A DNA stretch of 64,000 bases from Bdellovibrionota bacterium (GTDB lineage: Bacteria; Bdellovibrionota_C; UBA2361; JBGSMV01): positions 32,001-96,000 of the forward strand of contig JBGSMV010000031.1 in the NCBI GenBank assembly GCA_041739995.1, written 5' to 3'. The position numbers were made by a program. The stretch's first letter is position 1. Each line of letters begins with the position of its first letter. Below are positions 9,001 through 18,000 of the stretch, in pieces.

Positions 9001-12000
9001 CCATAGGTCAGTACTTACGCCCCAGCGAAAGGCAACTCCCCGTTCGAGAGTTCGTTACGCCTGAGCAATTCAAGAGTTACCAAGAGATTGGTCTGGCGAA
9101 GGGATTTCTTTTCGTTGAATCAGGCCCACTGGTAAGAAGCTCCTACCATGCTTGGAAGCATACGGTGGCCTCCCCGACCTAGTGTGCTGGGTTAGAAGTC
9201 GCTTACGCATCTTTCTCTCTGTTCTCGCCGAACTTCTTGTGTAATTCGTTAAATATATTCACAAAGAGCTCAGCGAGCGCGGCGAGAATTATTTATTAAA
9301 CCCTTAACTCAGGACACTGGCAGGCTGGTGACTCTGCAACCGTGACTCTGCAGCCGTGACTCCGCCCCTGTGCCCCTGTCCCATCGCCACAAGAAAACTG
9401 CCCAAATGCCATTTCCAAGCTCTTAACTCGACTCTTCCCGAGCAGCTGGGCGGGGGCTCGCCAGCGCTGATACTTTCCAATAGAATCGAGAACTTACGAT
9501 TTTAAACTCGACTGAAGATATCCTTTAATGAGACGCGGTTTTTGGCTTCCCGCATGTGCGCTTCTGATCGGCCTGGCTTCGAGCCTAGGAGTCATCTATG
9601 CCCAGAAGCGAATAGCCAAGGAGTTGATGGGGATACTTCAAGACGAGCTAAGCCAAGCTTGCCCCTGTAATCTCAAATTCGACTCATTCGAACTTTCTCT
9701 TCTGCGGCTGCGTGCAACTGGCTCGAACGTTCGAATAGAGCGGGATGGCACCCCGCACTTACGTTTTAGAGAACTAGAGGCAAAGTTTTCGCTTTCAGAC
9801 ATCCTTCAACGCCGTATTATCCTCAGCGAGCTTAATCTAAAGGATGGATTTTCCCAGGGTGTTGGTCCTGATAGCTCCACCTTTCAGTTCATCGACCAAC
9901 TGACCGCTCCCGCCCCTCCAGAGAAAGATTTTCCTGATCGCTTGAAGGTGCAACTAGAGCGAATTGTAGTTTCTAACGCCGAGTTTGTTGAGCCGATTCG
10001 AACCACCCAGGTGCTAGGGCGGAACGTTGATGTGGTTGTTCAACGCACTCCTGAGGGAGACTTCACCATTACTCCTTCGATCGGAGCTCTCGCCCTCGAC
10101 TTCAACCACACTAAAGTGCTGAACCTCGGGTCGGTAGGCGGAGAGGTTTTTCTCGACGACAATTCGTTCTTCTTGAAGCGAGTCCGACTATCAAATGGGA
10201 ATGCTAACCTAATCATTGACGCAGAAGTGCTTCAGCAGGACGGCAATCCGCTCTCAGGAGAGGCAGACTTCTTGCTGGATGACGCAGCCGTCGGAATTTC
10301 GCGTTTGGCTTCCTTCCTGCTCTACGGGTCAGGTCCTGTCAGTGGCCGACTAAAGTACCCCGAACTCTCAGGCTCATTTTCGAATCCCACCGAACAGCCG
10401 ACCATTTTTCGATATGAGTCCGACCGTCAGTTAGAATTTGCAAAAATGGGGGGAGACTTCACTTTGTCATGGGAAGAGAAGGAGCCCATTTTCACCCTGC
10501 AACATATCGAAGCGTCGAATTCGTTGGGTCAGTTCTCCCTTTCTCGCCCATTCCGCGTTTCCACCGAAACCCTCGAAGGAGAGGGCTCCTTCTCCCTGGA
10601 TTCTTTTGAATTCAGCTCCGTTACATTAAAGGAAATGCGGGCGGAGATAGTCGTTGATTCGAGTTGGACGAAACCAAAGCTGACGGCTCGCATTCAAGCG
10701 CCTCAAAGCTTTTTCGGAGAGTTTCCACTGGGGGCCTTTAACGCGATCCTTGAACTCGATGGTCGAGTCCTTTCGTTCAAAGCCGATACTGAATTCTCTT
10801 TCGCACAAAAAGATGCGGCCCCTTTACACCCGGTAGCGCAGTCTTCGGCGGCACAGCCTTCGATAACACCGCATTCCAGCGATAAAACTTTGGAAACCAC
10901 TACCACCGGATCATTGGAGTTTTCTGGTGATGACTGGGAACAGATCGAGCTGAAGCCAACCGAGATCTTGGTTCGTGCTGGACCTCAAAAGCGCAACGCG
11001 TCTTCGACCTTCCCCATTCTGGACGCATCTTTTCGAATTCAAGGGCCCCTCGATCCCCGCTTGGTCACCGGAAGTGGAAACTTTCGAATTAGCTCTACCA
11101 ATACACTGGTCGATGGCAAGGTAGAAATCAAAGACGGCACTGCCGCTTTTGAGTCTTCCCCTACATCTAAGAAGATCGCACTCAGCGCGGCGATTGGCCT
11201 CACTGAAGATATCCCTAGCCTCCTTGAGCTGCGTCTCACTGACTTTAATGCACTTGAGTTTACGACACCCCGCGCCGCTGGAACTGAGTCTACCACTCCT
11301 TACGCTGCGCCAACGAGCAACAAGCAATGCAGCTCAATAACCGGCTCGCTACGTTATCGCTTTTTAACCGCGCTTCCCAAGGAAGGGAGCGGTGAACTTG
11401 ATGTTCAAAAACTTTCGATTGGCTGTGCGCCTGTGAGCATTGCGTTAGTGGGACCTTTCGTTGCTCCTATTGATGCGGGTGGTTTTAAGCTGCGAAAGGT
11501 GGCATTTGCAGGAACGAACTCCTCACTGACTGTTGATGGTGAAATCGATCCAGGAATGACCCTCGATCTTGGACTCAATGGCAGTCTTGACTTGCGCGCG
11601 ATTGCTCCCCTTATTAGATCCGTCGATGACATTCGCGGTCAGGTCACACTCGACTCCTTTGTAAAGGGTCCGTTCGAAGATCCCACACTCAGCGGACATA
11701 TCGCGATAGAGGACGGTGAGCTTGATTCTGCTTCCTCCGATGTCAGCCTGCGCGCAGTCACCGGTCAGTGCTCCATTACGGATGGTGGACTTGAATTCGA
11801 AAATGTCTCGGGGCGACTCAACGAAGGAGTCTTTGAGTTAAGCGGTAGATTGGAGCCGCTCGCAATAGAGGAATCAGTAGCAACTCTTACCTTTCGAGAC
11901 TTGCTTCTCACTCCTACAGACGAACTTTCGGTCATTTTATCAGGCTCCCTCGGCATCGCCCCTGACAGTGAAGGAACCGCAGCCATTAGCGGAGAAATTA

Positions 12001-15000: not shown

Positions 15001-18000
15001 TCGGAGTGGCGTGGAAACTTGCCGATACCGACGAGATACCAATTTCGCAAAGATTCTATCTGGGAGGAAGAACGACGGTTCGAGGCTTTAAAGACAATTC
15101 GCTTGGCCCACTTGGCTTTGACGGAGCGGTGCAAGGCGGCGATCTTACCGCCTCTCAGAATCTCGAGCTGCGCCATAGGCTTGCCTCGAATACCGAAGTA
15201 CTTTCGTTTTTTGATTTTGGAGGATTGTTTCTTCAAGATGACCCAATCCTCTTGAAGGACGTGCGAGAAAGTTTTGGCCTTGGGGTTCGCTATCTCTCGC
15301 CAATCGGTCCGATCGGTTTTGATCTTGGGTTTCCTCTCGATCGAAGAAGCGGTGAAAGCACCTACCAAGTACACTTCAACATCGGCTCCAATTTCTAAGC
15401 AACCCGGCTGGCCCTCACCAAGCTCGTCGCTCACGTTCTCATACCTACAATCACTGCCCGGGTGGAACCTCATTTATGCAATTAGAACTTCATTTGACGG
15501 ACGTAACCATCTGTAATAACTAGCTTTAAAAACTTTCTCCGTCCTCAATTCAAACAGTTGCATCAAAGCAAAGTAAGAGATGTGTGAAATCCCGGTGCAA
15601 GGATTACCGGTCCTCGAACACCCACGGAGGGTTTTGTATGGTTATCATTGTTGTTCCTAGCTTTGAAAAGGGCTCCCCATTCAGCGAGCAGCTTCAGCGT
15701 ACGCTGGACCTCGCTCGAGCAAGTGGCGTCGCCGATCTGGTCATCGCAAGCGATGGCTCAATCCCCGCGATGAGTGGCATAGGACTCATCACATTCTCCG
15801 ACCGATACGCGCTTGGTAGCGCGATATCAGAATTTATCCATAGTCAGTCCGCTTCTAAGGTCGCGTCATCGCACGTCACCATAGTAAGTGCAGAAATATC
15901 ATCCCTCAGCAATTCATCGGCAGCAATGCAACGCCTGATTGCTGCGCAAGCCCCGCTTTCCTACATCCCTACTTTCCATGGATCCGAAACAGTCGAGTTT
16001 CCGGGAATGAACGATGCAGGGTTTATCGCCTCTCAATTGGTGCAGGATATTCAGCCTGAGACAATGATACCTGCGGTTGGATTGAGCGTTGCACGTGCAC
16101 TTCTTGATAAGGTTGGCTTTGCCTGTATTTCGCTTAGCGGACTCGCGCTTGAGCTTGTCGTTGAGTGCTTTTCTCGCGGCGAGGAAGTTCAACTTATCGA
16201 CAGCGACCTCTCAGTCGCTTCAGATTTCGCTCCTGTTCAAATCTCTAACGATGAACTTGCGCGTGGATTGAGGCGGGCTGTCGAGTTAATCGCCATTGAG
16301 GAGCTCTTTCCTGCCCATGCCTGGGACGCTCGGCGACCAGAAAGCACCATGTCGTGCTACCATCGCCTTGCCGCTAAATTTATTCGACTTGGTGACTTTG
16401 AAAGCGCTGATTCATGTCTCAATCAGTCAGACCGCATCGCAGAAAGCCCAAGAGCACTTGCATTGCGGGCAGTAATCGCTATGGAGCGCGGTGAGACTCT
16501 TGGTGCGATAGCGAAGCTGATCACAAGCCTTCAGGAATATGAACAACAGAAACGCAACGCCAGCGTCAGCAAACTGGAAGAAGGTGCCGGACAACCTATC
16601 GATTCGGTAAATGAAGAACTTAAGCAGGGACTCTCCGCATTGAACTCACAAGACAACAGCGCAGCATTAAAACACTTCGCTCGCGCGGTAAGAGAATTCG
16701 ATAGCTTCTACCGAGAGTCAGGACTGCTCACGTTGATGTAACCTTGCTGCGCAAATCGCTTGACACGTTGGCGCTCTATGGCGCCATCCCAAGCAAGTGG
16801 AAACATTCGACGGCCGCCGCGACGCTCCAGGCTTGAAACGGACATCCGCGCGGATGATACGGATCACTCGCATCGCAAATTTCAGAGATACTCCCTACCC
16901 CAGCCTCTCGAAGATGAGCCTTGATTGCAGCTAACGCTACATCGCCATCGCTCCTAAGATCTGCGGGGGTTCCATATCGGGCTACGGCCCTAAGATAGGG
17001 CGCGAGAAGCCATGGCCAAACCGTGCCTTGATGATAAGCGCGGTCGCGCTCAGAGGGTCCACCTGCGTAAATTCTTGAGTACCCTGGGCTCGATGGAGAA
17101 AGCGTGCGAAGGCCTAAACCTACAAACAGCTCCTGTCTTACAAGCTTCAACATCCGACGAGCAGACGCCTCTGGAATCAGCTCGAATGATGTCATACCTG
17201 CTTCCTGGTCAGGTTGAGCAGCTCCGACCCCCGGCATTGAGAGGCTAAGCGCCAGAATCTGATTCGGTCGCAAAAGCACATCCTCTGTCCACGACCGAGC
17301 GGTGCGATCATACAAGAGACAGTCCGCGAGGTGCCCTTCGGCTTCGAGCCAGAAGCTCTTCACGAAGGCGCGCGCTGCGGCATTTGCCCGAGCTTGATAG
17401 CGCTGCGCGGATTGAAGATCTCCGAAAGTTTCGTTTAATCGAGCGAGCACCAGCAGCGCATTAATCCAGAGCGCATTGATCTCGACGGGCTTGCCATGAC
17501 GAGGAGTCACTGGCACTCCATCTGCTCGCGCATCCATCCATGTCAGCTGAGTCGAAGAGTCTCCGGCGCAAAGCAGCCCATCACTATCAACACGAATCTG
17601 ATAGTCAGTCCCGCGCGTAAAGTTCTCCGCGATGTCGGTGAGCATGGGCAGAAACTGCTTTTCAACTACCTCGCGCTGTAAGCTCTCACGCAAGAACTGC
17701 CAAACTATCTCAAAGGCCCAAAGACTCCCGTCAACACTGTTGTACTCTGGAGCGGCGTCTCCGTCCGGAAACCGATTAGGGAGAAGTCCATGACGCATAT
17801 GCTCTTTGAAGAGCAGAAGAACATCTCGCGCTTCATCAAACCTTTGCGTACACAGACAAAGCCCTGGGATTGAGATCATGGCGTCTCGACCCCAGTCGGT
17901 GAACCACGGATAGCCCGCGATAATTGAAGAGCGCCGGGCTCCGCGCCGCACAATGAACTGATCAGCGGCAAGGAGCAGCGCTTGATACTCTTCAGCCTGT

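Follow-up and report, generated by a model that had tools for sequence, protein, structure and literature searches.

The closest described relative of the locus analysed here is the E. coli TAM, in which TamA and TamB are two polypeptides encoded in the order tamA then tamB and which has been solved by cryo-EM (9xdc and 9xdd, PMC12800296) and in nanodiscs (bioRxiv 10.64898/2026.03.22.713439). TamB brings an anchor, a beta-taco and the DUF490 helices and closes with six strands, the last being a D-L-x-Y beta-signal-like end; its TamA partner carries three POTRA domains and a 16-strand Omp85 barrel. According to the nanodisc study, the six TamB strands are embedded in the membrane, and two matters are debated: whether the primary job of TAM is lipid transport or protein assembly, and whether TamA and TamB form a stable, lipid-moving hybrid barrel or TamA cycles as a protein insertase (bioRxiv 10.64898/2026.03.22.713439). 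In Borrelia, the gene next to tamB encodes its partner, a BamA-like protein whose POTRA domains number more than three and which is the only BamA (PMC5582053, PMC13382580); in models from the second paper, TamB strands complete the BamA barrel and the POTRA ring is closed (PMC13382580). Acidobacteria and Aquificae are described as encoding a second BamA with extra POTRA domains beside TamB, as separate proteins, and Spirochaetes as having the gene order TamB-BamA (Heinz et al. 2015, PMC4494059). The Borrelia and Heinz et al. (PMC4494059) papers do not use the words fusion or fused for TamB and its partner, and our renewed literature search agrees with the preliminary description of this locus: no description of a natural TamB-Omp85 fusion was found in the literature searched.

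The window (the whole 64,000-nucleotide stretch of DNA that was analysed, from a Bdellovibrionota bacterium) contains such a fusion (Table 1). One conserved chain starts with a predicted signal anchor, continues through a TamB beta-taco with DUF490 and six POTRA domains, and closes with an Omp85 barrel of 16 strands. The elements listed above for E. coli TamB all have counterparts (the anchor by prediction), down to an equal number of terminal strands, but there are a number of key differences: (i), one polypeptide replaces two; (ii), there are six POTRA domains rather than three; (iii), the tamB part precedes the omp85 part; (iv), the beta-signal-like strand is internal and runs directly into POTRA1. 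The gene also differs from the Borrelia arrangement in that a housekeeping BamA exists in addition, and both from that arrangement and from the second BamA and TamB of Acidobacteria and Aquificae in being fused. We consider it probable that it encodes a single-chain TAM-like machine, derived from the fusion of an adjacent tamB-omp85 pair in the ancestor of one Bdellovibrionota order.

Table 1. Features of the fused gene and its upstream spacer; positions are those of the window, residues those of the 1956-aa product.
Feature	Residues	Position	Strand	Basis
Weak sigma-70-like promoter match		9458..9486	+	in the 345-nt upstream spacer; 9/12 positions; 1 found vs 0.3 expected; consensus match only
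Whole fused TamB-Omp85 gene		9528..15398	+	single ORF, 1956 codons + stop, ATG start
Predicted signal anchor, Arg-Arg just before	5-24	9540..9599	+	top-hydrophobicity window, conserved, helical in model
Periplasm-spanning beta-rich bridge, ~60 strands	47-976	9666..12455	+	AlphaFold2 model and Foldseek
Pfam TamB/DUF490	760-1115	11805..12872	+	E 2e-27, model 3-378 of 381
Helical segment of DUF490	982-1032	12471..12623	+	both models place helices at 982-990 and 1024-1032
Six consecutive beta-strands, last beta-signal-like	1036-1117	12633..12878	+	DSSP on both models, alignment
TamB/POTRA1 junction, ~7 residues	1118-1124	12879..12899	+	last TamB strand to first POTRA strand
Six POTRA domains	~1125-1200, 1206-1295, 1300-1374, 1380-1464, 1473-1534, 1540-1612	12900..14363	+	DSSP on model
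16-strand Omp85 barrel	1616-1956	14373..15395	+	model strands, VRGF loop-6 motif, C-terminal Phe

Given that the source is a metagenome-assembled genome (81 contigs, 91% complete), the long frame could in principle reflect an assembly artefact or a stop codon lost in this bin. The translation has no internal stop (ORF listing and translation of the window), and the ORF and Pfam coordinates on which the preliminary claim of a single 1956-aa gene with TamB, POTRA and Omp85 was based were reproduced exactly. Against an artefact, contigs of three DNA runs (X1, X3 and X4, from one study that is possibly the source) span the TamB/POTRA junction with 0 differences, and the same frame recurs widely: fused frames of 1650-1952 aa are present in at least 72 other genomes among the 90 of the order, and public genome records returned the fused gene at 80 loci, in many records, so that it is not confined to the assemblies of one study. 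With a junction-spanning query, 126 of the best 150 50%-identity representatives are 1635-1951 aa long and cross the junction, and all 74 homologue clusters (33-61% identity) combine TamB, POTRA and Omp85. This recurrence across genomes, public loci, representatives and run contigs refutes the artefact, to which we attach virtually no credence. None of the RNA runs searched contains the fused-gene stretch. The public gene call of the same protein is 1923 aa long and begins at Met34, leaving out the anchor; ATG 9528 is nevertheless the real start, because the N-terminal hydrophobic stretch occupies the same position in the full-length rows among the first 80 homologues.

No other 19-residue window of the protein is as hydrophobic as that stretch (residues 5-23), which sits within a single helix, 3-44, in an AlphaFold2 model of residues 1-1125 (pLDDT 80.6). 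We predict that it is a signal anchor, putatively uncleaved. A DUF748 match follows at residues 36-153 (Pfam, E 2.5e-5) but at 23 bits falls under the cut-off of 50. The N-terminal half is modelled as a continuous beta-taco with the fold of bridge-like lipid-transfer proteins: its best Foldseek matches are the TamB chains 9xdc_B (E 7.6e-10) and 9xdd_B, bridge-like lipid-transfer proteins are among the further best hits (LPD-3 9cap_A), 6cbc_B is hit as well, and 5vtg_A (TamB 963-1138) is matched with a TMt of 0.72 and an rmsd of 2.5. The TamB/DUF490 domain scores 96.9 bits against a Pfam cut-off of 22.4 and is the only PF04357 match in the whole genome; the proteobacterial equivalog ATportTamB (NCBIfam NF047952) reaches only 22.5 of the 825 bits at its cut-off. 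Within DUF490, residues 992-1026 have pLDDT values below 50. The full TamB/DUF490 bridge of the preliminary description holds, and its N-terminal membrane anchor is probable. The genome has other AsmA-like genes, and the fused protein therefore need not be its main lipid bridge.

The C-terminal half was modelled from residue 760 to the end (AlphaFold2, 61 sequences, mean pLDDT 80.4, pTM 0.68). Pfam recognizes POTRA in four stretches (E 1.8e-30, best 1380-1466), and split Omp85 partners align to the fused protein from residue 1122-1156 onward; the preliminary count of three POTRA domains is to be corrected to the six seen in the model. The barrel is matched by Pfam Omp85 over residues 1664-1956 (E 2.7e-39), the R-G-F of its loop-6 motif is invariant in the family alignment, and VIA-align superposes it on the TamA 8us1, BamA and Sam50 barrels with Z values of about 25, its fold matches including TamA 8us1 and 4c00. 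POTRA domains, 16 strands and the VRGF motif together place it in the Omp85 superfamily.

The barrel had been called TamA-like, a label that we abandon. With the TamA equivalog ATportTamA (NCBIfam NF047950) it scores 91.3 bits where 625 are required, the POTRA domains are six and not the three of proteobacterial TamA, and an Omp85 tree groups the barrel with the BamA-like proteins that partner TamB in the same class; E. coli TamA, the sole TamA included, is a long branch effectively unplaced in this tree (branch length 2.6, weak placement support of 79). TamA orthology is not supported. The BamA equivalog TIGR03303 (cut-off 297 bits) comes much nearer: the fused protein scores 269, a split sister partner passes with 356, and a housekeeping BamA on another contig (C26) reaches 595, in line with the earlier statement that a normal BamA is encoded elsewhere. 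Five BamAs of the class form a clade of their own (support 100), grouped with E. coli BamA (92) and apart from the clade of fused proteins and split partners (96). By these scores and trees, the barrel half is a BamA-like paralogue dedicated to TamB and distinct from the housekeeping BamA.

The trees also inform on the origin of the fusion. Among the matches listed for 33 genomes of other orders of the class, only one fused frame was found (genome G011). Twelve loci from 11 genomes of these orders were compared: 11 have tamB (frames of 1202-1387 aa) directly upstream of a separate omp85, one adjacent split pair in each of the 11 genomes, and the twelfth is the G011 fused gene. Such split operons (also in records labelled Deferrimicrobiaceae) hold the closest relatives of both halves, as two genes rather than one: a tamB directly upstream of, or overlapping, an omp85 of 869-1010 aa. 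Fused and split forms occupy the same chromosomal place, with lipA upstream of both (in three of the split loci). In the Omp85 tree, the fused family, which includes G011 (support 99), and the split partners (100) are sister groups, joined with a support of 96, and the DUF490 tree has the same topology (97, 99 and 91, respectively). A second set of fused proteins, of Acidobacteriota type (2000-2800 aa, Thermoanaerobaculia where named), has the same TamB, POTRA and Omp85 in the same order on one chain, but is only 22-28% identical to the fused family and 100-850 residues longer. In both trees these form a separate clade, with split Deferrimicrobia-type TamBs beside it, and a single clade of all fused proteins is rejected by the AU test (delta lnL 102.7, p-AU 8e-6). 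Both trees set the fused family next to split pairs and the test rejects one fused clade; the Bdellovibrionota fusion therefore arose independently of the Acidobacteriota-type one.

The split relatives also show what was lost. Their TamB keeps a tail of 12-20 residues past the beta-signal and their Omp85 has its own signal peptide; the fusion removed both. The remaining stretch from the last TamB strand to POTRA1 is nearly linker-free and, as far as the alignment goes, fixed across the family: its length is identical in 38 of 40 rows, the other two differing by +2 and -1. The D-L-x-Y strand lies within about seven residues of POTRA1 instead of at a free C terminus. In this protein the junction contains E-R-R-R-F, with basic residues that a periplasmic protease could use, and one could imagine that the exported chain is cleaved where TamB meets POTRA1 to yield an ordinary two-protein TAM, the fusion giving only equal synthesis and co-delivery. 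We find this improbable: the basic run is not conserved (the family consensus gives x for most of the junction), neither an internal signal peptide nor a linker is present, the junction does not vary in length, and Pfam finds no protease domain in the fused protein.

For a chain that stays whole, we infer the following path. Sec would export it while the N terminus stays in the inner membrane, the C-terminal barrel would be assembled into the outer membrane by BAM, and the six TamB strands may dock at barrel strand 1, by analogy with E. coli TamAB; docked in this way, they would oblige the six POTRA domains to form a closed loop beneath the seam. Phospholipids could then move along the groove from the inner to the outer membrane, and TamB and its Omp85 partner would, being fused, act as a permanent 1:1 unit. 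Docking itself is addressed by several observations. In VIA-align, four BamA barrel-only chains align from model residues 280-282 onward, where the first of the six TamB strands lies; this hints weakly at a hybrid barrel in the model, in which these strands have pLDDT values of only 52-83. Covariation over 121 sequences (Neff 76, underpowered) gives 2.29 (MI) and 3.27 (DCA) for the last TamB strand versus barrel strand 1, compared with means of 3.14 and 3.52 for adjacent and 2.38 and 2.94 for non-adjacent strands, and does not separate strand pairs. Asp1111 is nearly invariant and falls, within the D-L-x-Y motif, on the position of D1252 of E. coli TamB; TamA K283, with which D1252 pairs, aligns to a Phe (MAFFT), so that the D1252-K283 salt bridge is not evidently kept. 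The locus had been proposed as a natural test of the stable hybrid-barrel model; as worded this goes too far, since what the covalent link shows is permanent 1:1 association, not pairing of the last TamB strand with strand 1.

Alternatively, the protein might be a tethered insertion machine, its barrel inserting a subset of outer-membrane proteins through a free lateral gate while TamB serves as a periplasmic chaperone or scaffold whose six strands are not permanently in the membrane. The barrel does keep the Omp85 hallmarks and scores near the BamA equivalog, which the split sister passes; purified TAM is reported to assemble outer-membrane proteins in vitro (PMC11341756), one solved structure (9xdd) captures TamAB in a non-hybrid state, and a hybrid barrel in the fused protein is itself predicted by analogy. 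The short junction, together with a run of six POTRA domains that returns to strand 1, would, however, hold the TamB strand near the seam, the Asp of the beta-signal-like strand is nearly invariant, and a separate full BamA is present for general insertion. We regard such a tethered insertase as unlikely, though a better candidate than cleavage, and keep the single-chain TAM-like machine as our preferred reading. A bolder version can be put forward tentatively, at somewhat below even chances: TamB and Omp85 would have fused at least twice independently, here without a linker, and a closed six-POTRA ring would join the beta-signal strand to strand 1 so that the lateral gate is permanently filled in cis. 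Rather than being an insertase, the Omp85 part would then serve a bridge-like lipid-transfer protein as its dedicated socket in the outer membrane and as the exit for lipids, and a single polypeptide would be integrated in both membranes of a diderm cell.

In this gene of an uncultured Bdellovibrionota bacterium, an envelope machine of two proteins occurs naturally in one piece. It offers a chain of fixed stoichiometry for structural work, if not the ready-made construct announced earlier: each of the 80 loci that genome records yielded comes from a metagenome bin or from the assembly of an uncultured isolate, and no cultured host is known from these records. The fusion also predicts a sharply defined topology, in which the six POTRA domains close into a ring and the seam is filled in cis, and raises a question of biogenesis, namely how BAM receives an inner-membrane-anchored chain of ~215 kDa whose far end is to fold into the outer membrane. 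An order-wide, natural and linker-free fusion, independent in origin of a second fused family, would mean that permanent 1:1 coupling of TamB and its Omp85 partner is compatible with function and has been selected repeatedly.

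TamB and Omp85 are joined in one chain, and the features concerned are collected in the table. A new Pfam search reproduced the domain coordinates of the preliminary description. The N-terminal segment that it had read as a signal anchor is the most hydrophobic window of the whole protein and keeps its position among the full-length homologues displayed, which is why we take the ATG at 9528 as the start. The public gene call (P0002, 1923 aa) begins at Met34, leaving out window 9528-9626 with the conserved signal anchor. At the DNA level, the TamB/POTRA junction is spanned with 0 differences by contigs of 3 DNA runs (one study, possibly the source); all four runs listed as holding the junction stretch are DNA runs from a single study, with no RNA run among them. 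The Cys pairs 45/47, 601/633 and 1181/1192 are invariant or nearly so across the family, and would fit periplasmic disulfides.

Features of the fused gene, its protein and its surroundings (window positions in nucleotides, residues of the 1956-aa protein)
Feature	Position	Strand	Basis or remark
2-oxoacid dehydrogenase E2	upstream of fused gene		housekeeping
Lipoyl synthase (lipA)	window 8202-9182, upstream of fused gene	+	housekeeping
Three near-copies of a 14-nt unit	window about 9328-9369		inside 345-nt spacer upstream of fused gene
Fused gene	window 9528-15398	+	one ATG-initiated open frame, 1,956 codons
385-aa gene	window 15584-16741	+	directly downstream of fused gene; TPR hits sub-threshold only
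Glycogen debranching enzyme	downstream of fused gene	other strand	housekeeping
Helix	residues 3-44		AlphaFold2 models
DUF748	residues 36-153		Pfam, sub-threshold
About 60 consecutive strands	residues 47-976		AlphaFold2 models
TamB/DUF490	residues 760-1115		Pfam, E 2e-27
Helical segment, partly disordered	residues 982-1032		AlphaFold2 models
Six strands	residues 1036-1117		AlphaFold2 models
POTRA			Pfam, E 1.8e-30
Six POTRA units	residues about 1125-1612		AlphaFold2 models
16 barrel strands	residues 1616-1952		AlphaFold2 models
Omp85	residues 1664-1956		Pfam, E 2.7e-39

The junction itself is tight. At residue 1115 the match to the Pfam TamB model has run to its end (378 of 381). The D-L-x-Y motif of the E. 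coli TamB C terminus recurs in the last TamB strand, where Asp1111 is nearly invariant, and the first strand of POTRA1 starts about seven residues further on; this length is identical in 38 of the 40 family rows displayed, the remaining two differing by +2 and -1. Split relatives, in which tamB and omp85 are separate adjacent genes, have a TamB with a 12-20 residue tail beyond the beta-signal and an Omp85 that starts with its own signal peptide, and on the fused protein they align from residues 1122-1156 (Omp85) and up to residues 1066-1118 (TamB). Judged from these relatives, what was lost in the fusion is the TamB tail and the Omp85 signal peptide. As for the E. coli TamA K283-TamB D1252 salt bridge, the Asp is conserved and a Phe stands opposite K283, according to one MAFFT alignment of uncertain register.

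In this genome of 3.8 Mb (81 contigs, completeness 91%) there are one TamB match, the fused protein, and four Omp85 matches. One of these is the separate normal BamA that had been reported, a full BamA on contig C26 (TIGR03303, 595 bits vs a cut-off of 297); two more are weak Omp85-domain frames of 695 and 739 aa (contigs C58 and C14). The barrel of the fused protein had been called TamA-like, a label that is not supported: against the TamA equivalog it reaches 91 of 625 bits and fails, and E. coli TamA sits on a long branch, unplaced, in the barrel tree. It also fails the BamA equivalog, narrowly (269 of 297 bits), and a split sister partner passes that model with 356 bits. The barrel half is best described as a BamA-like paralogue that is dedicated to TamB and carries additional POTRA domains. 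Parts of one earlier survey report BamA-like paralogues of this kind in Acidobacteria and Aquificae and propose such a paralogue as the origin of TamA (Heinz et al., 2015, PMC4494059); those are separate genes, whereas here the paralogue is joined to TamB in one chain. Because two AsmA-like frames of 681 and 782 aa and a YdbH-like one of 707 aa are also encoded (contigs C23, C35 and C6), the fused protein is not the sole bridge-type candidate.

How widespread is the fusion? In a phylum sample of 124 genomes, with 90 others of the same order and 33 in other orders of the class, a single 1650-1952 aa frame covers the match in at least 72 of the 90; most same-order genomes without a whole fused frame are cut by contig ends. 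In the other orders, a fused frame occurs only in genome G011, among the matches listed; another 183 matches lie beyond that list. Twelve loci fetched from 11 of these genomes comprise the fused gene of G011 and 11 loci at which tamB (1202-1387 aa frames) lies directly upstream of, or overlaps, omp85 (869-1010 aa), so that a split pair is present in all 11 genomes examined. G011 carries a split pair plus a fused 1883-aa gene (L019, L020); its fused copy, which the barrel tree nests within the order's family and the DUF490 tree makes sister to it, is either transferred or early-branching. The 80 loci given by a scan with one genome per species stem without exception from metagenome bins or assemblies of uncultured isolates, with labels such as Bdellovibrionota, Bdellovibrionales, Oligoflexia and similar. 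Deferrimicrobiaceae-labelled loci that appeared fused by tblastn proved on inspection to be split pairs. A record labelled Candidatus Dadabacteria has a 1916-aa fused frame of about 41% identity (L044:760-6507), perhaps through transfer or because the bin is mislabelled. Among 1.84 billion representatives, a junction-spanning query (residues 1000-1300) matched 144 proteins with E values of 1e-10 or lower, and of the 150 representatives listed, 126 span the junction and have lengths of 1635-1951 aa.

The same order of domains is found in another set of fused proteins, of Acidobacteriota type (2000-2800 aa, 22-28% identity, "Thermoanaerobaculia" where named). In a quick IQ-TREE barrel tree (last POTRA plus barrel, 55 rows, no bootstraps, root not inferred), the Bdellovibrionota fused family including the G011 copy (support 99) is sister to its own class's split partners (100; joint support 96), a separate clade (93) holds the far fused proteins, and the BamAs of the class group with E. 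coli BamA (92). A quick DUF490 tree (52 rows, likewise no bootstraps and root not inferred) is concordant (97, 99, joint 91) and places split Deferrimicrobia-type TamBs beside the far fused proteins. When the 35 fused rows were constrained to a single clade, a group named only after the first tree had been seen, the cost was 102.7 log-likelihood units (p-AU 8e-6). These sequence comparisons are evidence for an origin of the fusion independent of the far family; fusion followed by re-splitting would be less parsimonious. In this genome and at 11 fused loci lipA lies upstream of the fused gene, and at three loci from other orders (L015, L021, L023) it lies upstream of split tamB, which points to both forms occupying the same chromosomal place. 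Homologues of the downstream 385-aa gene lie downstream on the same strand at 43 of 76 fused loci and at none of the 21 split loci; the gene is a possible companion, specific to the Bdellovibrionota order carrying the fusion. A terminator scan found none downstream of the fused gene.

The chain was modelled with AlphaFold2 in two overlapping runs (residues 1-1125, 54 sequences, pLDDT 80.6; residues 760-1956, 61 sequences, pLDDT 80.4, pTM 0.68), and the three POTRA domains counted from Pfam in the preliminary description become six in the model. Since phmmer with the TamB half against solved structures gave no hit with an E value of 0.01 or lower, a fold search was needed: its best matches for the N-terminal half are the TamB chains of TamAB cryo-EM entries, 9xdc_B (E 7.6e-10) and 9xdd_B, with LPD-3 and a Vps13 N-terminal fragment among the others, and this half superposes on the TamB 963-1138 crystal structure with TMt 0.72 and rmsd 2.5 A. 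The C-terminal half matches BamA, TamA and Sam50 barrels (Z about 25).

By homology with E. coli TAM, as described in sections 5 and 9 of a preprint (bioRxiv 10.64898/2026.03.22.713439), the six TamB strands would be embedded in the outer membrane, and the last of them would pair with barrel strand 1. Expression of TamAB needed BAM to be co-expressed. Their number being even, the end of the last strand would be periplasmic, beside the start of strand 1, and the two points would be bridged by the six POTRA domains; because these connect both points, the hybrid-barrel reading predicts a closed POTRA ring with POTRA1 beside POTRA6. Models of Borrelia BamA-TamB, as presented in part of one article, have a closed POTRA ring and a barrel completed by TamB (PMC13382580). 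Among the structure matches of the C-terminal half, the aligned ranges of four BamA barrel-only chains begin at the first TamB strand (model residues 280-282); since the output gives range ends alone, this is a weak hint of a hybrid barrel in the predicted model. For the pairing of the last TamB strand with strand 1, covariation across 121 fused sequences (Neff 76; MI-APC and mean-field DCA) is powerless, since known adjacent strands score barely above non-adjacent ones. We hypothesize that the chain would be exported by Sec with its anchor retained, that its barrel would be assembled by the separate BamA, and that it may transport lipids.

As the preliminary description had stated, the literature searched holds no description of a natural TamB-Omp85 fusion (term searches of PMC4104836, PMC5582053, PMC4494059, PMC12045153, PMC12800296, PMC11014939 and PMC13382580), bearing in mind that supplements could list one, for example Table S1 of a bioRxiv preprint, with DUF490 length classes. 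The architecture was likewise found unremarked in public databases under generic names ('TamB domain-containing protein', 'outer membrane protein insertion porin family'). What is added here is the split sister loci, the evidence for an independent origin, the count of six POTRA domains, and the linker-free junction with its predicted topological consequence.
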